The translations under genes were made by a program, and so were the position numbers. The notes under the pieces are model-generated. The model saw only the letters and a program-made list of their open reading frames with translations. It was not told the DNA's origin and made no database searches. A stretch of 36,371 nt of DNA from a virus (lineage: Duplodnaviria; Caudoviricetes). The DNA lies in IMG/VR virus record IMGVR_UViG_3300037566_000074, positions 1 to 36,371 of that record. The stretch is one strand, 5' to 3'. Shown here piece after piece: positions 19,256 through 36,320 of the stretch; positions within the stretch are counted from its first letter, which is position 1; each line of letters opens with the position of its first letter.

Positions 19256-19663
19256 TTAATTTTCTATTCTGAAAATAGCATCTTTTAATGATTTTACGGA
19301 TAAATGCAAGTACTGTTGCGTGGTGCTTATTTTCTTATGACCTAATAAGGCTCTTATGTGTTCTATTTCTAATGATGATTCTAATAGGTGCGTGGCCCTG
19401 CTATGTCTTAAATCGTGTAGCCTTATCTTTTTTGTAATACCAGATTTTTTTAAATTGATCTTTAGTACTTTGGTTAAGCTCATTGGGCTATATTGTATTG
19501 AACTCTGACCATTGAATAAATATATTTTTGGTCTGTATTTTTTATAATACAGCCTTAACAGATTGAAACAGTTTTTTGGTACCGGCACCATTCTATCTTT
19601 ACGACCTTTACCGTTTACTATTCTTATAGTTGTTTTTGTTTTACAATGTAAATATAAGCACAT
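19256..19663 (-). pseudogene. 5'-truncated XerD/integron-integrase-like tyrosine recombinase (C-terminal half only)
   Basis: GKGRKDR, YLFNGQ, HDLRHSRATHLLE and LLGH..ISTTQQY are present. The first catalytic Arg box and the N-terminal domain are absent, and the first ~12 codons look like AT-rich intergenic DNA. Confidence 0.8.
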
Positions 19664-19676
19664 TTATTTACATAAC

Positions 19677-19716
19677 CAAATATATTTGTAAATATTTACG
19701 TTTTTATTTACATTTG
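19677..19716. promoter_or_regulatory. Divergent Bacteroidota-type promoters
   Basis: Rightward TTTG(19685-19688)-N20-TACATTTG(19709-19716) before the ATG at 19721, and leftward TATATTTG (19684..19677) inside the palindrome CAAATATATTTG. Confidence 0.6.
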
Positions 19717-19720
19717 TGAT

Positions 19721-19915
19721 ATGAACAAAAGAATAACATCATTTTACACAATCGTTTTAGACAGTAAGGTTATCGCTTTTGGTAACCTTAAAGACATTCA
19801 CTACATATTTAAGAACATCTATCCAGAAGCTCGTAATTATCAATTCTACTATCGCAAGTTTCAAAAAGAGCCTTATTTTGTTTGGGAAGGTTATCACTTT
19901 CAGCAACTCGTATGA
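19721..19915 (+). CDS. Small hypothetical protein, possibly DNA-binding; near-leaderless transcript
   Basis: Canonical promoter 4 nt upstream and hairpin downstream. Confidence 0.65.
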   Translation: MNKRITSFYTIVLDSKVIAFGNLKDIHYIFKNIYPEARNYQFYYRKFQKEPYFVWEGYHFQQLV

Positions 19916-19947: not shown

Positions 19948-19980
19948 TACGATACAAAATCCACCGTTTTTTTACTTTTT

Positions 19981-20009
19981 CTACTCATATACCAAATCCG
20001 TTAGCCACC
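19981..20009 (-). other. attC-like left half-site (partner arm not found)
   Basis: Minus strand GGTGGCTAAC-ggatttg-GTATATGAGTAG, right after the stop of the 95-aa ORF. Confidence 0.55.
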
Positions 20010-20011
20010 AT

Positions 20012-20299
20012 TTAAGATGACGTTGCTTTGATAATATCACGTTCTTTAGTCATTTCAAAAGCATAGTGCCAGCTTTCATTTGTACCACAAGTCACAGCAT
20101 AGCTAATACCGCTTTCTCGAACATTTATTCCAGTAACAAGTCTTTCAGCCTGTTCAGGGTCAGTTCGTAAATATACGCTATCACCAATATCAAAGTGAAG
20201 AACGTGCTTTTCAAAAACGGTGGCTAACACTGTATAACCGTCAGGCTTAGTGTTTTGCTCTTTTGAAACTTTAGTCTTAGTTACTTTCTTTTCGCTCAT
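20012..20299 (-). CDS. Cassette-encoded hypothetical protein (SH3/KOW-like FDIGDSVYL motif) starting inside an attC-like loop
   Basis: N-terminal KPDGYTVLAT is encoded by the right arm of the site at 20219..20246. Confidence 0.7.
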   Translation of the reverse strand: MSEKKVTKTKVSKEQNTKPDGYTVLATVFEKHVLHFDIGDSVYLRTDPEQAERLVTGINVRESGISYAVTCGTNESWHYAFEMTKERDIIKATSS

Positions 20300-20359
20300 T
20301 TAATAATGTTTTTGTGTTCAGTCGCCCGAACGGTTATACTCGTACGTTGTTGTAGGCAA
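20219..20359 (-). other. attC-like site A
   Basis: Minus strand: TTGCCTACAAC AAC-gtacga-GTATAACCGT(T)CGGGC ... GCCTGACGGTTATAC-agt-GTTAGCCACC, a 15-bp stem with one bulged T and one G.T pair. Confidence 0.7.
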
Positions 20360-20360
20360 T

Positions 20361-20498
20361 TTAATTGCTCGGCTTTTGGCATATATCTTCGCCACACCAC
20401 TCAGAGCAACGCTTAATTCCTTTTGCATAGTTTTCACCTAAGCAATTAAACTGTTCGCTTTGCCCAACAACTACGGGTATAGATAATTTTTTAACTAC
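20361..20498 (-). pseudogene. Start-less ORF remnant VVKKLSIPVVVGQSEQFNCLGENYAKGIKRCSEWCGEDICQKPSN reading through an attC-like right half-site
   Basis: The open frame crosses CTATAC-ccgta-GTTGTTGGGCAA, and its 5' part is replaced by repeat copy 1. Confidence 0.45.
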
Positions 20499-20743
20499 AG
20501 GTTTTTAGTTCGGTTAATTTTTTCCTTTAAGGCATATAGATAAATCGATGTGTATGCAATTGCTACAGCTAATGATATTATTCCAAAAGCAATTGCCTTA
20601 GCTTTTGTTTCTTCAGAATAGTTTAGGTCAACATTTTGAATATTAATAATAGCCACTAACCAAAAGACAATAACATAGCACCATCCAATTATTAAGAATA
20701 ATGTCCCAAATAAAAAATCGGTTGTAATTTTAAATGTTGCCAT
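20495..20743 (-). CDS. Two-TM membrane protein, copy 1 of 3
   Basis: 82 aa with two hydrophobic helices and a basic tail. Confidence 0.75.
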   Translation of the reverse strand: MATFKITTDFLFGTLFLIIGWCYVIVFWLVAIINIQNVDLNYSEETKAKAIAFGIISLAVAIAYTSIYLYALKEKINRTKNL

Positions 20744-20763
20744 AGTGTTTGATATTTACAGTT
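20496..20763. repeat. 268-bp direct repeat, copy 1
   Basis: Identical to 21258..21525 and one substitution away from 22994..23261. Confidence 0.97.
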
Positions 20764-20764
20764 A

Positions 20765-21253
20765 TTAATTACTCGTTTTCATAAAGGACATCCATATTGT
20801 TTTGCTTTGACGACCTGTAGTGTGTCCGAAAAGTGGTTTGTACGGAATTAAGTTTAATATCTCACTTGACTTAATCTCAGATTCATTCCACTTAAATATT
20901 AAAGTGCCATTTGGTTTAAGCACTCTCATACATTCATTAAAGCCTTTTGATAACATTTCTCTCCAATTACCCTCTAATCTTCCGTATTTTTTAGCCATCC
21001 AAGAGGTTTTACCAAGCGTTTTTAAATGAGGTGGGTCGAAAACTACCATGTAAAAAGAATTATCTTCTATAGGTAAGTCTGTGAAGTCCGCAACGACATC
21101 TGGTGCTACTTCAATTATTCTGGTCTTGTCTCTGTCTTTTGCGGTTAAAGTCTCAAACCTTTTGTCTATATACAACACGTCTTGATTTTCTTTATCAAAC
21201 CAAAACATCTTGCTTCCGCAACACGCATCTAATATTTTTTTATCGGTATTCAA
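20765..21253 (-). CDS. Small phage SAM-dependent methyltransferase (probable amino-DNA MTase)
   Basis: ILDACCGSKMFW (motif I), VVFDPPH (motif IV-like) and RVLKPNGTLIFKW. Confidence 0.85.
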   Translation of the reverse strand: MNTDKKILDACCGSKMFWFDKENQDVLYIDKRFETLTAKDRDKTRIIEVAPDVVADFTDLPIEDNSFYMVVFDPPHLKTLGKTSWMAKKYGRLEGNWREMLSKGFNECMRVLKPNGTLIFKWNESEIKSSEILNLIPYKPLFGHTTGRQSKTIWMSFMKTSN

Positions 21254-21256
21254 TTG

Positions 21257-21505
21257 TTACAGGTTTTTAGTTCGGTTAATTTTTTCCTTTAAGGCATATA
21301 GATAAATCGATGTGTATGCAATTGCTACAGCTAATGATATTATTCCAAAAGCAATTGCCTTAGCTTTTGTTTCTTCAGAATAGTTTAGGTCAACATTTTG
21401 AATATTAATAATAGCCACTAACCAAAAGACAATAACATAGCACCATCCAATTATTAAGAATAATGTCCCAAATAAAAAATCGGTTGTAATTTTAAATGTT
21501 GCCAT
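21257..21505 (-). CDS. Two-TM membrane protein, copy 2 of 3
   Basis: Protein identical to copy 1. Confidence 0.75.
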   Translation of the reverse strand: MATFKITTDFLFGTLFLIIGWCYVIVFWLVAIINIQNVDLNYSEETKAKAIAFGIISLAVAIAYTSIYLYALKEKINRTKNL

Positions 21506-21525
21506 AGTGTTTGATATTTACAGTT
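21258..21525. repeat. 268-bp direct repeat, copy 2
   Basis: Offset 762 bp from copy 1. Confidence 0.97.
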
Positions 21526-22987
21526 TTAGTTTACTAATTATTTCAGCGAGTACATCTACTACAATAGAGTTACCAGCTTGTTTATACATTTGAGTATCTG
21601 AGCAAGGCATTTTAAAGCTATCCGGAAACCCCATAAGACGAAAACACTCTCTTGGTGTTAACCTTCGGATTTTGTAATCAGATAATAAAACATTAACCTT
21701 ATTTTCTGTTCTTCCTGCCGGTATGCATCCCATGTGTCCGTTTTCAAAATAGGCTCTATCTTGTTGCGATTTATAACCTTTACCTGATTGATCCCATTGA
21801 ATATAATTCTTGGTAACTACCACATTATCTTTTTGTACGGTTGTTAAGGTATTAGAAGTACCATTAAGATTTAGTTCTAGGCGTTGTTCTGTAGGTAAAC
21901 CTGTTTCTCTACTTGTAGGATTTTCTGGATTACGACCTCTAAGCACACCAATCATTACACCTTGATTACAAGCTGTGTCTAAAGTTTGAGCTACTTCTTT
22001 TCCTACTCGTCCTCTACGAGTCTGGCTATTAGGCTGGCTAAGGTTTATACTATCTCCTTCTTGTGCAACTTCAAAGCCTTTTTTTGTTGCGGATTTTATT
22101 TTTACCGTATCCCAATTATGCTTATCTGTAAATGTGCCTTGACCTCCAGAACGTATAGTATTGGCAATGTCTTTGCCTTGAAAATTGGTTACAGATATAG
22201 CGTTCATCCCTTTATATGTACCACAAGCGTTACCAGGTGTTTGTAATGTGTTGGCTATTTCTGGATCTACTTTTGATTTTTGCAGATTATTTTCATTCTG
22301 TATTATTGATTTTATTGCGCTATCACTCAAAAAATACTTGTTATCTACTTCAGCTTCGAGAACATCTTTTAAACGTTTGTCTAAAAAGTAGGGTTTTGGC
22401 CATGTAAAGGTATTATCTGCATCATCCCTTACACCAACTATAAACACGCGCTCTCTGTTTTGTGGCACTTTATAGTCTTTGGCATTAAGTACCTTCCAAT
22501 ATATATGGTATGGTACGCTATCTTCGTGCGGAAAGAATATAGGATTGCCATTTACGGATTTACCTCCTAAAAGAGTTAACCACTTTGTAAAGGTTTGGCC
22601 CAGATCGTCTTTTGCTGTTTTTTTGTCGTCGCTTAGTAAGCCTTTTACATTCTCGAAAATAAAGTAGCGAGGTTTGTTTTTTTGTATAAACTCGTGGCTA
22701 TTGTAGAATAGTATTCCTCTTTTATCTGCTTCGCCTTCACGTTTTCCGGCTAAACTAAACGCTTGGCAAGGAGGAGAAGTCATGTAAATATCCAGGCTTT
22801 TTTTTGGTATATCTCTGTTGTAAACATTTTCTGGATAATAGTCTGGCTCTCCGTAATTAGCTATATAGGTTTGACGAGCGTATTTATCCATATCACAAGC
22901 AAATACGGTTTTGTGCTTAATGTCTAACTGCATTAATGCTTGTCTAAATGCGCCTACTCCGCTAAAATCTGAGCCTACTTTTATCAT
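21518..22987 (-). CDS. DNA (cytosine-5)-methyltransferase with long variable region
   Basis: FSGVG, SPPCQAFSLAG, FENV, PQNRERVFIVG, RRLTPRECFRLMGFPD and YKQAGNSI. Confidence 0.95.
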   Translation of the reverse strand: MIKVGSDFSGVGAFRQALMQLDIKHKTVFACDMDKYARQTYIANYGEPDYYPENVYNRDIPKKSLDIYMTSPPCQAFSLAGKREGEADKRGILFYNSHEFIQKNKPRYFIFENVKGLLSDDKKTAKDDLGQTFTKWLTLLGGKSVNGNPIFFPHEDSVPYHIYWKVLNAKDYKVPQNRERVFIVGVRDDADNTFTWPKPYFLDKRLKDVLEAEVDNKYFLSDSAIKSIIQNENNLQKSKVDPEIANTLQTPGNACGTYKGMNAISVTNFQGKDIANTIRSGGQGTFTDKHNWDTVKIKSATKKGFEVAQEGDSINLSQPNSQTRRGRVGKEVAQTLDTACNQGVMIGVLRGRNPENPTSRETGLPTEQRLELNLNGTSNTLTTVQKDNVVVTKNYIQWDQSGKGYKSQQDRAYFENGHMGCIPAGRTENKVNVLLSDYKIRRLTPRECFRLMGFPDSFKMPCSDTQMYKQAGNSIVVDVLAEIISKLKL

Positions 22988-22992
22988 TTTAG

Positions 22993-23241
22993 TTACAGGT
23001 TTTTAGTTCGGTTAATTTTTTCCTTTAAGGCATGTAGATAAATCGATGTGTATGCAATTGCTACAGCTAATGATATTATTCCAAAAGCAATTGCCTTAGC
23101 TTTTGTTTCTTCAGAATAGTTTAGGTCAACATTTTGAATATTAATAATAGCCACTAACCAAAAGACAATAACATAGCACCATCCAATTATTAAGAATAAT
23201 GTCCCAAATAAAAAATCGGTTGTAATTTTAAATGTTGCCAT
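22993..23241 (-). CDS. Two-TM membrane protein, copy 3 of 3
   Basis: Differs from the other copies by one residue (YLHAL vs YLYAL). Confidence 0.75.
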   Translation of the reverse strand: MATFKITTDFLFGTLFLIIGWCYVIVFWLVAIINIQNVDLNYSEETKAKAIAFGIISLAVAIAYTSIYLHALKEKINRTKNL

Positions 23242-23261
23242 AGTGTTTGATATTTACAGTT
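22994..23261. repeat. 268-bp direct repeat, copy 3
   Basis: Offset 2498 bp from copy 1, with catgtag instead of catatag (Tyr to His). Confidence 0.97.
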
Positions 23262-24004
23262 TATTTTTTAGCGTTAGTATTGTTATGATTCTTATGATAG
23301 GCTTTGTAATCATAACCTTCATGTTTAAATATTTTATAGATTGATCCTTTTGATATTTGAAATGTTGAGCAGATATCCTCTAAGGTTGTGGTTGGGTTTT
23401 TGTGCATCATTACGACTGCTGCGGATATTTTTTTAAGTTTTTTGCTTAGTCCTTTTGGTCGTCCTAATGAGCCACCCGATTCTTTATATCGTTTGAGTCC
23501 GGCTAATACTTTTTCATTACTTTGCTTTCTAAAGAACTGTCCTATTAGTGCAAATATTCCAAATATTAACTCACCTTCTGCGGTGCGTGTGCTTTCGGTA
23601 TTGATATGCGGATTAGTTAGGTCCTGAAATTCTATTCCTGTTTTTTGAAAGTGTTCTACTAAGGTAAATAGGTATCTTGGATTTCGTCCTAATCTGGTGA
23701 GATCATAAAATACTATTTTGTCGCCTTTACGAAGGACTTTTAATAATTCCTGTAGTTGGTCTCTATCGTCGTTTTTTCCTGAGTCGGTATCTAAATAGAT
23801 GTTTTCTTCTTTGATACCTAAAAGGTTAAATCTATCTACTTGTATGCCTAAGTTTTGATTTTCTGTGCTTACTCTACCATAGGCAAATACTTCTCGCTGG
23901 GTTTTTATACCTTCTGATTTTTGTTGATTTTTAGTGCTTCCTATTGCTTTGCAAGTGTCTAAAAAATCAACTTCGTTTATTTTATCTGTTTCAAGGGTTT
24001 TCAT
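23261..24004 (-). CDS. Small serine recombinase (resolvase/invertase family) with C-terminal HTH
   Basis: FAYGRVST, DSG, LTRLGR, GRP hinge, then an HTH. Start placed at the MKTLE ATG (24004) because the longer TTG start overlaps the upstream gene. Confidence 0.9.
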   Translation of the reverse strand: MKTLETDKINEVDFLDTCKAIGSTKNQQKSEGIKTQREVFAYGRVSTENQNLGIQVDRFNLLGIKEENIYLDTDSGKNDDRDQLQELLKVLRKGDKIVFYDLTRLGRNPRYLFTLVEHFQKTGIEFQDLTNPHINTESTRTAEGELIFGIFALIGQFFRKQSNEKVLAGLKRYKESGGSLGRPKGLSKKLKKISAAVVMMHKNPTTTLEDICSTFQISKGSIYKIFKHEGYDYKAYHKNHNNTNAKK

Positions 24005-24009
24005 GTACT

Positions 24010-24204
24010 TTATTTTGATAGTTGTTTTAAATATTGTAGAAGTACTATTAGTGTTATTATTATTTCTACTATCATTAACCAATAGACTAGATTTTGTCTT
24101 GATTTTTCGGCTTTTATAAATTGCCAATCTAACAGAATACTTGTTAGTAATGGCAATACAAATAGCATTGCTATTAGAGCTATTACAGTTAGGTTTTGTT
24201 TCAT
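24010..24204 (-). CDS. Small two-TM membrane protein
   Basis: Two hydrophobic helices; ATGA-coupled to the upstream gene. Confidence 0.65.
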   Translation of the reverse strand: MKQNLTVIALIAMLFVLPLLTSILLDWQFIKAEKSRQNLVYWLMIVEIIITLIVLLQYLKQLSK

Positions 24205-33076: not shown

Positions 33077-33149
33077 TGTTAAGATCGGTTGTTGGTGTAC
33101 AACTTAGCACAAGCGCCAACAACGCGAGAATTAAAACTACTTTTTTCAT
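32988..33149 (-). CDS. Small lipoprotein, 53 aa (not in ORF track)
   Basis: MKKVVLILALLALVLS|CTPTTDLNNEETASCPAPDTNCNGIPDHEEGPTNSGG has a clear lipobox, an acidic mature peptide, a Cys pair and a DxNxNGxxD motif. Confidence 0.75.
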   Translation of the reverse strand: MKKVVLILALLALVLSCTPTTDLNNEETASCPAPDTNCNGIPDHEEGPTNSGG

Positions 33150-33376
33150 TGTATATAATTTTACGAGTTAATAATTAACTATAAAATACGTATATACAAG
33201 ATGTGATAGCCTTAGATTTTACTAAAGTTATACAATTATTTTTAACTATTATTAATTAAGGGTAAGGGAAAAATAGTTAAACTAAAACAGGATGTACAAT
33301 ATACATCCAAAAATATAATCTCACTATTAAAACCTATATCATTTCGATTAAATGTTCGCTTTTTTCGTTTTCAATG

Positions 33377-33529
33377 TTAACAATTTATAAAACTATCAAC
33401 ATGATCTGTAAGTACATTTTTAATGTACTGGTTAAGACTAACACCAGCCTTTGCCGCCAATACATTCAACTTGTGCGCCACACTATCTTCGTCTTTTAAA
33501 TCACCAGGTATATCAATCAATTTTTTCAA
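33377..33529 (-). CDS. Ribbon-helix-helix (Arc/HicB-like) regulator, 50 aa (not in ORF track)
   Basis: TTG start, KKLIDIP strand and LAAKAGVSLNQYIKNVL helix pair; TATATTTG promoter at 33567..33560. Confidence 0.65.
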   Translation of the reverse strand: MKKLIDIPGDLKDEDSVAHKLNVLAAKAGVSLNQYIKNVLTDHVDSFINC

Positions 33530-33559
33530 AATGAATCTATTAATTATGGGTTAATAATG

Positions 33560-33609
33560 CAAATATATAAAATATATATGTTATATATTAAAATAATTTA
33601 CTAATTTTG
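33560..33609. promoter_or_regulatory. Divergent -7 promoter elements
   Basis: Leftward TATATTTG (33567..33560) and rightward TAATTTTG (33602..33609). Confidence 0.5.
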
Positions 33610-33630
33610 TGATTAATAATAATTTACACA

Positions 33631-33993
33631 ATGAAAAAGTTACTCTTAACAATAAGCATTACCTTTATTTTTAGTACAGGTATTAAAGCTCAGATTCCAA
33701 CAAAATTTGGATCATTTAAACAATACATCACTAAATCAAACGATACACTAAAGGTAGGTGATAAAATTACCTTTGGCTTACCAACCAACGGAAACCAGTA
33801 TATATATATTACGCAAGGCAATGTGCCAGCTGCAGCAAAAATAAATGGAGATACGGTTACAATTCACAAATTAAAAAGCATAGGCAACAAAACCAAAGGC
33901 TATAAAATGTATGCCCTTATTAAAGGTTATGGCTTACTTCCTGTATTTGTAGATATTGAAGCCGCAATAAAAACTGAAGAAATAGAATTGTAA
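33631..33993 (+). CDS. Exported hypothetical protein (moron)
   Basis: Signal peptide MKKLLLTISITFIFSTGIKA|Q and its own promoter; the stop lies 4 nt before attC-like site 1. Confidence 0.8.
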   Translation: MKKLLLTISITFIFSTGIKAQIPTKFGSFKQYITKSNDTLKVGDKITFGLPTNGNQYIYITQGNVPAAAKINGDTVTIHKLKSIGNKTKGYKMYALIKGYGLLPVFVDIEAAIKTEEIEL

Positions 33994-33997
33994 ACAT

Positions 33998-34134
33998 TAC
34001 ACACAACGAATTTGTATAAGATTAGGTGCTAAATTCGGCAGAATTTACACCGTATAAACAAGAACAAAACATTGAATTAAACATTAACTTTAAAAAAGTC
34101 CACAAGCACTTAATTTTATACGGTGTTATGTGGC
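33998..34134 (+). other. attC-like site 1
   Basis: TACACACAAC-gaattt-GTATAAGATTAGGTGCT ... AGCACTTAATTTTATAC-ggt-GTTATGTGGC, a 17-bp stem (15 Watson-Crick plus 2 G.T). Confidence 0.72.
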
Positions 34135-34144
34135 GTTATTTAAG

Positions 34145-34369
34145 ATGATTGTAATTAAGAAAGTAGCGGATAGAAAATTAGAAACAGACGTTGAATTAAA
34201 CACTGATTGTTTTTGCCCTAATTGTGGTGAAAAAGAAGTTTATACTGCTATTGGTGAAGGTGATTATTATGAAGGACCTTATAATTATTGCAAAAACTGC
34301 AAATGTGCGTTTACTATGCCTTCTTGTGGTGTAGATGAAAATATAGAATTTATTTCTAATGCCACATAA
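34145..34369 (+). CDS. Cassette-encoded zinc-ribbon protein
   Basis: CPNCG...CKNCK. The TAA stop lies inside GCCACATAAC, and ATG 34145 is preferred over GTG 34130. Confidence 0.75.
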   Translation: MIVIKKVADRKLETDVELNTDCFCPNCGEKEVYTAIGEGDYYEGPYNYCKNCKCAFTMPSCGVDENIEFISNAT

Positions 34370-34873
34370 CGGTGTAGCTATGAGTAGTGCGGGCATTACA
34401 GCACTGACCTAAATACGAGTATTAACCGCTCCCGCTTCTTTTTTGAGCGTGGGCAAAAACGAAAATAAAATGGAAACTATAATTGAAAGAAAAGACATTA
34501 CTGAAGAAACTTACCGCGAAATACTTGATGTTGAAACGCATCACAACCACCCAATAATTAAAGACGAAAACGGCACTTTAAGGTGGAAGGAAAACAAGGA
34601 CACTTGTAAGTTTCTTAGAAACATTTCACTTAATGATTTATGCCCTTTACTGAATAGTTTGGGGTATGATAAGAACTCTGAACCATACAGACAGCTTTAC
34701 CGAAATATGGGGTATTCGCTTTTTGGGTATTGGGAAATATTCTATTGGGAAGTGAATAATGAAGGTGCTGAAGAATATACGCCAAATGAAATGTGCGTTG
34801 GGAAAAAAGAAGCATAGCACAGACCTTACTACGAGCTACGACACCCGCATTACTTATAGCTGATGTTGTAGCA
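34361..34873 (+). other. attC-like site 2 with a whole gene in its loop
   Basis: GCCACATAAC-ggtgt-AGCTATGAGTAGTGCGGG ... CCCGCATTACTTATAGCT-gat-GTTGTAGCA, an 18-bp stem (16 Watson-Crick plus 2 G.T). Confidence 0.7.
34470..34817 (+). CDS. Hypothetical protein nested in attC-like site 2
   Basis: ATG 34470 follows an A-rich leader (the track uses TTG 34443); DENGTLRWKEN...GYSLFGYWEIF. Confidence 0.75.
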   Translation: METIIERKDITEETYREILDVETHHNHPIIKDENGTLRWKENKDTCKFLRNISLNDLCPLLNSLGYDKNSEPYRQLYRNMGYSLFGYWEIFYWEVNNEGAEEYTPNEMCVGKKEA

Positions 34874-34884
34874 TCGTTTTAATG

Positions 34885-34952
34885 TGCTACAACACCAAGC
34901 TATGAAACGTTGCGAGGCACGAGCTATGATTTATAGCGACTGTTGTGGGTAG
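34885..34952 (+). other. attC-like site 3 (compact, 68 bp)
   Basis: TGCTACAAC-accaa-GCTATGAAacgttgc-gaggcacga-gctatgaTTTATAGC-gact-GTTGTGGGTAG. Confidence 0.72.
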
Positions 34953-34967
34953 TTATTCAAAAAAAAA

Positions 34968-36116
34968 TCATAACAGCGAAATTATTTTCTCATGTGCCGC
35001 ATCGCGCACACTGAGCGGAAACTCATTAGTATAAATACTATGCGTGCTTTGTTGTGCATGGCCCACCAATTCCATGGTAATACGTTCATCTATTAGCATC
35101 TGTTGCGCTCTATTAATAAAAGAGTAGCGCGCACCTTTAGTCAGCACACGCACACCAAGCCTTAGATCCTTAATATAATCATTAAGCCGATCATTCATAT
35201 TGCTTACAAAATCATTCTGAGATTTATACTTATGTATTGGCACCAGGTAAGGATAACAGCCAAAACGCTTTAGCAATGCCTCAGCTTCAGGAAAAATCTT
35301 ATTGTTTATATACACACTCGTACCACCTTTAAAACGGTAAAACTGCACACGCCCATCATTAACATGCTCATCATAGCGCAGATTAGCCAAATCAATAGCA
35401 TCAATACCACCAAGGTAAAACATAAGCATAAAATAATAGCGGTAAGCATTAATACTATCTATAGAGCTTTTATAATCGTGCTTGTTTAAAAGAGTCCTGG
35501 TAAAAAACAACTTTTTCAGTTGCGCATCGTTAAGATGCTTAGATTTGGTTTGCTCTTTTTTAGGGCGCACACCCTCAAAAGGATTAGGTAAATGCAAAGG
35601 CTTCACCTTATTAAAAATAGCATTCAAAGTACGCATATAGGTATGCACACCATTAGGCTTATTGGTTTTTAAAAGTGCAGACATATAAGCATTAGCATCA
35701 CTTTTAGTAATTGCTTCAATAGCCACACCAGGAAAGGCCGCATTAAAACTATTCAAAACCGTTTCGTACAATTTACCATTAGTGCTACCATCTACCAAAA
35801 CCAAACCAGCATCATAAAACGCGCCAGATTGCGCCTTAATCTTACCAAACAATAACTGCTTGGCATCAGCATAACTGTAACGTTGGGTATTAATATCCGC
35901 AATAATACTTTTTTGATTCAACAGATCCGCAATTAACAAATCATATTCCGGATGCTGTTTTGTAATGGTTTCAGTAGCATCATTCCAATGCTCAGGCTGG
36001 CATCTAAAAATTGTTTTCTTAACAGGAGATTTACCAGAACATCTTAAAATTTTATATACCGGAAAACCATTAGCATTTGGTTTCTGACTCAATTCTAATT
36101 TTAAAGATGCCTTCAT
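34968..36116 (-). CDS. Prophage integrase (Bacteroidota-type tyrosine recombinase)
   Basis: Adjacent to att. N-terminal arm-binding-like region, then GGIDAIDL, RFKG, TKGARYSF and LVGH...IY. Confidence 0.88.
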   Translation of the reverse strand: MKASLKLELSQKPNANGFPVYKILRCSGKSPVKKTIFRCQPEHWNDATETITKQHPEYDLLIADLLNQKSIIADINTQRYSYADAKQLLFGKIKAQSGAFYDAGLVLVDGSTNGKLYETVLNSFNAAFPGVAIEAITKSDANAYMSALLKTNKPNGVHTYMRTLNAIFNKVKPLHLPNPFEGVRPKKEQTKSKHLNDAQLKKLFFTRTLLNKHDYKSSIDSINAYRYYFMLMFYLGGIDAIDLANLRYDEHVNDGRVQFYRFKGGTSVYINNKIFPEAEALLKRFGCYPYLVPIHKYKSQNDFVSNMNDRLNDYIKDLRLGVRVLTKGARYSFINRAQQMLIDERITMELVGHAQQSTHSIYTNEFPLSVRDAAHEKIISLL

Positions 36117-36244: not shown

Positions 36245-36291
36245 TGTGATCGCGACAGGATTCGAACCTGTGACCGTCTGCTTAGAAGGCA
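36245..36291. repeat. Right att core
   Basis: Identical to 81..127. Confidence 0.97.
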
Positions 36292-36320
36292 GATGCTCTA
36301 TCCAGCTGAGCTACGCGACC
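36247..36320 (-). tRNA. tRNA-Arg(TCT)
   Basis: GGTCGCGTAGCTCAGCTGGATAGAGCATCTGCCTTCTAAGCAGACGGTCACAGGTTCGAATCCTGTCGCGATCA folds as a cloverleaf with anticodon TCT. Confidence 0.96.

Follow-up and report, generated by a model that had tools for sequence, protein, structure and literature searches.

The region between positions 33998 and 34952 of this prophage raises the question of whether phages of Bacteroidota carry gene cassettes that move as those of integrons do and, if so, what the moving unit is, which strand folds and which enzyme could act on it. The window, by which we mean the whole stretch of 36,371 nt that was analysed, is a complete or near-complete siphovirus-type prophage whose minus strand carries the genes for tail, head, terminase, DnaB and replication. 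The cassette array lies in the accessory region adjoining the prophage integrase (Table 1), whose named relatives are from Flavobacteriaceae. With this integrase or the zinc-ribbon protein of the array as query, no close viral relative at the array locus was found. The integrase alignment comprised 12 loci at 30-45% identity, and among the 301 Bacteroidota genomes searched none had the integrase at E<=1e-60 and none had the pattern of the terminal site (site 3).

Table 1. Positions and strands of the features of the two arrays and their surroundings in the window
Feature	Position	Strand	Remark
TAnnTTTG box	33602..33609	+	putative promoter of the 120-aa gene; motif match to the Bacteroidota -7 consensus
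120-aa gene	33631..33993	+	ORF; signal-peptide-like N-terminus; upstream of site 1, not bounded as a cassette
Resident left flank	33998..34007	+	ends in AAC; partner of the terminal GTT box (9/10)
Unit A (363 nt)	34008..34370	+	site 1 hairpin, GTT box 34125-34134, zinc-ribbon gene, closing TAAC; boundaries inferred from sister-phage indels
Zinc-ribbon gene (74 aa)	34145..34369	+	CxxC..CxxC; 79 aa from GTG 34130; stop in TAAC box
Unit B (523 nt)	34371..34893	+	loop-loaded shell: arms 34376-34393 / 34844-34861, inner motif 34432-34455, gene in loop
115-aa gene	34470..34817	+	in site 2 loop; stop codon from the shell
Empty spacer of Unit B (29 nt)	34865-34893	+	after site 2 right arm; has the CGTTTTAAT loop
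Site 3	34894..34951	+	short terminal hairpin and GTT box 34942-34951
Prophage integrase	34968..36116	-	arm-binding type; context gene, not the cassette recombinase
tRNA gene	36247-36320		next to the prophage integrase
Recombinase fragment (135 aa)	19256..19663	-	C-terminal part of a ~270-aa Xer-like tyrosine recombinase
Second array	19980..20480	-	right half-site, short cassette, full site 20349-20225, 95-aa gene, closing AAC ~20000, left half-site
95-aa gene	20299-20012	-	starts in site loop, reads through right arm

Hairpin sites and the units between them

The preliminary description, made from the sequence alone, had listed three attC-like sites with one grammar, and the three sites and their complementary ends are real. 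A grammar scan of 33400-35400 gives 3 sites, compared with none in 287 and one in 13 of 300 dinucleotide shuffles, and a chained pair of sites in 0 of the 300, in a test that is generous to the sites, the scan grammar having been written after they were seen. GTTATGTGGC (34125-34134) pairs with GCCACATAAC (34361-34370) at 10/10 and GTTGTAGCA (34865-34873) with TGCTACAAC (34885-34893) at 9/9, as first reported. The zinc-ribbon ORF, ending at 34369, likewise stops inside the TAAC box as had been stated. The outermost flanks, 33998-34007 and 34942-34951, are 9/10 complementary; this count agrees with the earlier one, but the right-hand box lies one base to the left of the end then claimed. A lone 9-base GTT..AAC pair is not significant, with 11 in the whole window and only 3 of these at the sites. 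Because such pairs are common and the grammar was fitted to these sites, their strongest support is recurrence elsewhere. The grammar, whose presence outside this phage had been made a test of the first interpretation, recurs in many phages, and both the shell of Unit B and the terminal site recur in other elements at 83-95% identity. The scan misses site families with other arms (Muminvirus), and it found none in L023, L025 and L026. One contig of run X3 spans 34292-35009 with zero differences, so the array is not an assembly artefact; run X2 may be the source sample and is not counted as support.

The arms of sites 1 and 2 are longer than in the first reading. Those of site 1 (34014-34030 / 34105-34121) pair at 15/17 and those of site 2 at 16/18, ungapped, with an asymmetric unpaired spacer and no bulged base evident, while the arms of site 3 are short. 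Site 2, at 502 nt with its arms 450 nt apart, holds the whole 115-aa gene, which the first reading had overlooked. Minimum-energy folds of the linear sites are weak (z -0.2 to -2.3), and the predicted circle junction of Unit A folds as a single long stem. The record has the AAC/GTT core boxes around an imperfect inverted repeat that mark an attC site, and the complementary cassette ends with a folding circle junction that mark an integron cassette. A CALIN is defined by two or more attC sites that the attC covariance model detects, with no integrase nearby; the record has three sites and zero intact cassette recombinases in 36 kb. At the gathering level Rfam gave no non-tRNA match in the end of the record or in 15 array loci. 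For a repeated structured element of Bacteroidota the first guess would presumably be Flavo-1 RNA. This family (RF01705, PMC2864571) has no match here or in the same 15 loci, and the published sequences in the available part of that report look different.

None of the cargo proteins shows a function above cut-off in Pfam, PHROGs, NCBIfam or PADLOC. The zinc-ribbon protein has a weak match to Pfam PF14354 (E=0.0046, below cut-off) and no homologue among viral contigs, and the 115-aa protein has no family match in Pfam, PHROG, NCBIfam or PADLOC. The same four collections give no family for the 120-aa protein upstream of site 1, whose look-alikes in Atlas are unnamed and mostly Bacteroidota proteins. 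The preliminary description had placed the array under one promoter at 33602; the box there fits the -7 promoter consensus of Bacteroidota (PMC9723704, in the portion available) and may perhaps read on into the array.

Unit B contains a shell that is reused with other genes. Exact-pattern scans matched the site 2 shell in one viral contig (L013), two Bacteroidota genomes (L015, L016) and two metagenome sequences (L101, L102). In 6/6 sequences including this phage the identity extends across the empty spacer and breaks off directly behind the closing AAC, and on the left it starts in the spacer after the preceding AAC in the three sequences that reach that far. Three contigs of run X5 also carry the shell; they join 34462/34464 to 34803/34804 and end loosely at 34894. 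Four unrelated gene families (115, 91/91, 77 and 94 aa) occupy the five copies whose loop is complete, and in all five the ATG lies 13-14 nt past the fixed motif and the stop codon lies within the shell. Two of these families double as ordinary GTT..AAC cassettes, namely the L101 gene (Peternella_1 gp22) and the 115-aa gene, whose homologues in L001 and L003 are at 76% and 65% identity. Among the 11 loci of the 115-aa gene, eight (L004-L011) have no cassette boundary and another (L002) retains only the closing AAC and the next left arm. The CGTTTTAAT loop of the empty spacer is also the inner loop of ordinary sites in L022 and in phage P12002L. These comparisons suggest a single-stemmed circle in which either of two loops could hold a gene. 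No AAC/GTT grammar was confirmed at the inner loop junctions of the shell.

Site 3 is likely the resident docking site of the array. It is 84% identical to the last site of the four-site array of Winogradskyella phage Peternella_1 (L012) and 83% identical to a site in L103, and a related terminal site closes the L013 array. Members of this family thereby close arrays in three other elements; four different cassette ends precede them, with similarity beginning after the AAC/AAT. The outer flanks match within their own array at 9, 10 and 9 of 10 in three arrays and across arrays at 6-7/10, with the exception of L012 against L103, which gives 10 with one flank shared; in L103 a first flank could not be identified. 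Most simply, a resident complete hairpin, 33998-34007 joined to 34894-34951, would have taken units into its AAC side. Beyond the site-3-type site, L012 and L103 have one more short spacer with a mini-hairpin, and site 3 could therefore be an empty unit that was itself inserted. A plus-strand TAAC (34968-34974) in the last integrase codons, shortly after site 3, is a poorer pairing partner of the terminal GTT box than the 33998 flank.

Boundaries of the moving unit and the folded strand

For this array itself no recombination, circle or empty site was seen, and runs X2-X4 gave no joint at the sites, in contigs, which drop rare variants. Breakpoints were mapped in other phages, not close relatives at this locus, by comparing the array regions of sister phages in 8 pairs from nine public records. 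Six distinct clean indels were found, of which five overlap the coding-strand AAC box and none lies at the right-hand GTT. The five share 4-8 bases at the junction. They comprise one 781-nt methylase unit that separates Danklef_1 from Danklef_2, with only TAAC common to both ends, a 914-nt indel in P12002S, a 506-nt indel in mumin relative to mymlan and tooticki, and indels of 1581 nt and 412 nt in filifjonk. The sixth (P12002S, 1093 nt) is displaced by 7-11 nt into the left arm, to a shared 5-nt stretch. The AAC position is equivalent across three phage genera. Replacement edges, counted by eye, fall at AAC in ten cases and at GTT in two (both in Danklef_1/Freya_10), with the rest within genes or loops. 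The preliminary description had expected precise gain and loss of cassettes at the sites in related phages, and had put the coding-strand crossover at the G|TT that follows the site. Precise events at the triplet are indeed seen in sister phages (5/6 clean indels), on the AAC side before the site, and the G|TT position (0/6) is contradicted.

Because units are gained and lost at the coding-strand AAC box, with no clean indel at the right-hand GTT, the unit appears to be a site plus the DNA downstream of it, the gene travelling with its upstream site, which reverses the integron order. The strand that folds appears to be the coding strand. In 44 distinct sites the coding strand has 42 G·T against 3 A·C wobbles (p=9e-10), the sites having been chosen on Watson-Crick pairs alone and being related rather than independent. 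For sites 1 and 3 the two strands hardly differ in DNA folding energy. As far as the available part of PMC5027507 goes, integrons recombine the bottom strand at R', and recombination of the top strand at R'' inverts the cassette. Set against this, the AAC boundaries and the coding-strand wobbles point to a polarity relative to the genes that is opposite to that of integrons; a crossover in R' on the bottom strand, with a cassette made of a gene and its downstream attC, is not what the arrays display.

The sole related prophage at this locus, record 25 of run X5, is ~85-88% identical in the pieces compared and joins 33530 to 34984. Its 33077-34984 interval is ~740 nt shorter, with edges outside the sites and the interval itself unseen, and it shows that the array block is variable between prophages.

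Danklef_1 (MT732458, L122:3843-4623) and Danklef_2 (L123) are near-isogenic cultured isolates, and the adenine-methylase unit between them has exact AAC ends; in both, only a 43-aa integrase remnant is annotated in the compared stretch. In the methylase region of Muminvirus (L124-L127) methylase content varies by AAC-bounded units. The arms of these units differ from the TATA-type arms here, and the arrays close with a conserved half-site.

A second array and the small recombinase

A second array of the same grammar, overlooked in the first reading, is found on the minus strand, where it directly precedes the recombinase fragment; it is identical in L024, a contig of the same phage that ends short of the 33998-34952 array. 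Alignment shows that the fragment lacks the N-terminal domain and the first catalytic arginine; its homologues are 266-288 aa long, the six best at 61-68% identity. The preliminary description had suspected that a full-length homologue of this recombinase moves the cassettes. In related phages full-length homologues do lie directly behind such arrays, in agreement with this idea. The copy in this phage is truncated, has no first catalytic arginine and lies beside the second array, 14 kb from the first. The stretch that replaces the N-terminal half (19639-19867) shares 73% identity with part of Polaribacter phage Freya_10.

In all six full-length loci with upstream DNA (L017, L018, L019, L020, L022 and L023, which include Leef_1, Ingeline_1 and Freya_10), an AAC and a short C-rich half-site precede the start codon directly, and the upstream genes are co-oriented and point toward the recombinase. 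Perfect GTT..AAC pairs upstream of the gene number 4 in L021 (=L017), 6 in L022 and 3 in L023, with only 1 in L018 and only 401 nt of flank in L020. Among 59 distant recombinase loci, 7 have at least one such pair and 2 at least two. Two distant loci, L032 and L041, have 4 and 3 perfect pairs upstream and probably carry further arrays.

These enzymes do not look like IntI. On TIGR02249 four full-length homologues score 116-124 bits against a cut-off of 265, each in two stretches, the N-terminal one ending near profile position 181, and the best stretch of the fragment is 242-301. We take the IntI-type insertion to fall between these two stretches, and none of these array-linked recombinases matched the IntI family with its specific insertion. 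Family scores are best for the XerA/XerC/XerD-like group (NF040815, TIGR02224, TIGR02225), all below curated cut-offs, and highest for NF040815 (183-201 bits, cut-off 220). The apparent context here is a cassette array and not a dif site. None of five array-bearing records (Peternella_1, P12002L and those of L003, L013 and L103) matched the recombinase profile, in a search that had no positive control and in which two records are fragments; the enzyme would therefore have to act in trans or be another one.

Several other features of this part of the record deserve mention. A serine resolvase/invertase gene lies at 23261-24127 (-), between terminase and a C5 methylase. A ~270-nt segment with an 82-aa membrane-like ORF is present in three near-identical copies (20489-20763, 21258-21525 and 22987-23262, minus strand), which alternate with two methyltransferase genes. 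L024, otherwise 100% identical, lacks the methyltransferase at 20765-21253 and one ~270-nt copy, which could be either real tandem variation or an assembly join of alternative alleles.

Relation to integrons and weighing of the explanations

As far as the available parts of PMC5027507 and PMC8618304 describe integrons, the two systems have in common the imperfect AAC...GTT hairpins and the complementary cassette ends that are restored on circularisation, as well as the precise gain and loss of units at the AAC triplet, a half-site by a tyrosine recombinase gene and one strand favoured for folding. They differ in several ways. Integrons use the bottom strand at R', whereas here the gene lies downstream of its own site, the coding strand appears to fold, and the genes read toward the half-site and recombinase. 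The array-linked recombinase, unlike IntI, is ~270 aa long and lacks the IntI-type insertion, the 17-18-nt arms have no evident bulged base, and a whole gene can occupy the hairpin loop. By analogy with attI, the half-site found before the start codon in six related loci may serve as a docking site, whereas the array here closes with a full hairpin. Seen from the template strand, the order of recombinase, attI-like half-site, G|TT crossover and attC-like sites matches an integron, except that the genes are oriented in reverse.

Two such sites are already in the literature. A CALIN with two divergent attC sites was reported in the Bacteroidota phage P12002L of Polaribacter (PMC9892861; Qi et al. 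2023), and its accessible text treats them as ordinary attC, with no wider family, reversed polarity, half-site or dedicated recombinase. Located in the genome, attC1 is a full site of the present grammar in gene sense, with the same CGTTTTAAT loop as the empty spacer here, in methylase-rich arrays of like kind; attC2 is a terminal half-site that occurs twice in the phage and is read on the strand opposite to the genes. In the accessible part of the same report IntI1 recombined attC2, while attC1 had no verified junction. This fits a reversed polarity only loosely, because IntI1 is a foreign enzyme. An identical 68-nt terminal half-site closes both arrays of P12002L (L100:29222 and 37248). In the portions of other sources available, one complete integron is named in Bacteroidetes proper (PMC9024848), and phages are described without the words integron or cassette (PMC7077304, PMC8776804); PMC7077304 also links a missing methylase to reduced plating in Muminvirus. 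Nor is the system described in the parts available of PMC9723704, PMC3414803, PMC8618304, PMC8352920, PMC2864571 and bioRxiv 2024.07.02.601686. The earlier remark that no formal description was known holds in so far as our literature searches, with subscription journals outside their reach, found none, but needs amending for the two sites published as attC.

The explanation that we consider probable is a two-unit array of hairpin-first units, for which a small Xer-like tyrosine recombinase supplied from outside acts on the coding strand in its folded form. Each unit would begin directly behind one AAC box and finish with the next, the hairpin preceding the cargo, and the recombinase would insert and excise it on the folded coding strand. 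The enzyme would be supplied in trans, because the copy in this phage is truncated. Once excised, the unit would be a circle with one long stem and two loops re-formed at its junction, and the gene could sit in either, the outer loop in Unit A and the inner loop in Unit B. Both units would have entered on the AAC side of the resident hairpin. Comparative sequence from relatives shows that unit boundaries fall at AAC, that folding is biased toward the coding strand and that, where arrays end downstream, a half-site is followed by the recombinase gene.

Other readings have to be weighed against this one. The palindromic boundaries might act in RNA, as a leader, terminator or processing signal, with the genes swapped by homologous or illegitimate recombination and no dedicated recombinase. 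The G·T bias of the coding strand would also fit an RNA structure, and arrays without a recombinase match, the one indel in a shared 5-nt arm stretch and the two edges at GTT could be accommodated as well. We nevertheless regard this as unlikely, given that most indels share just 4-8 nt at the same AAC position in three genera and that the sites differ in sequence and leave little homology to use. The complementary cassette ends form a site only once circularised, the half-site lies at the recombinase start codon in six loci, and no Rfam family matches.

Still less likely, in our judgement, is classical integron polarity, in which a gene and its downstream attC would be moved by a host IntI with a coding-strand crossover at G|TT, the array being a CALIN. 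This is what the R''(AAC)/R'(GTT) arrangement, with a stop codon inside the TAAC box, would first suggest, and the recombination of one P12002L site by IntI1 (PMC9892861, in the text available) and the two replacement edges at GTT agree with it. The indel map contradicts it, with no clean indel out of six at the right-hand GTT, the spacer downstream of the shell moves along with it, wobbles are biased to the coding strand, and the associated recombinases reach only 116-124 of the 265 bits required on TIGR02249, in two stretches. That the sites are chance palindromes in AT-rich DNA or an assembly artefact is extremely improbable: single 9-base pairs are common and the grammar was tuned on these sites, but the chained pair is absent from the 300 shuffles, the shell and terminal site have copies at 83-95% identity in other elements, and run X3 carries 34292-35009 unchanged.

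Returning to the hairpin-first array, the integron-like cassette system of Bacteroidota phages that had been proposed for this locus is supported in that units are lost and gained at the sites in sister phages, the grammar is recurrent and full-length recombinases lie behind the arrays. It is a real cassette array that works like an integron and departs from one in two defining respects, polarity and IntI, and the array in this phage is small and probably orphaned. It is of value for its clear evidence on boundaries and for a shell that can be reused. A bolder reading, which we offer tentatively as possible rather than probable, is that Bacteroidota and their phages have a separate, polarity-inverted analogue of the integron with a non-IntI recombinase and an empty two-loop shell that captures ORFs from start to stop in either loop. 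On that view Unit B would show us a cassette being born.

The reusable shell is a concrete substrate for asking how genes first enter cassettes, an open question in the field. The cargo is of relevance, as the differences between near-isogenic cultured phages are methylase units that begin and end precisely at such sites, and the system can be tested in the cultured hosts and phages that exist (Danklef, Leef_1, P12002L/S, Muminvirus). If the explanation is true, tools trained on attC read these arrays in the wrong direction, and single-strand hairpin recombination would work without the IntI insertion and with the opposite choice of strand. The phages of a major phylum that integron surveys have scored as nearly integron-free would then own a cassette system.
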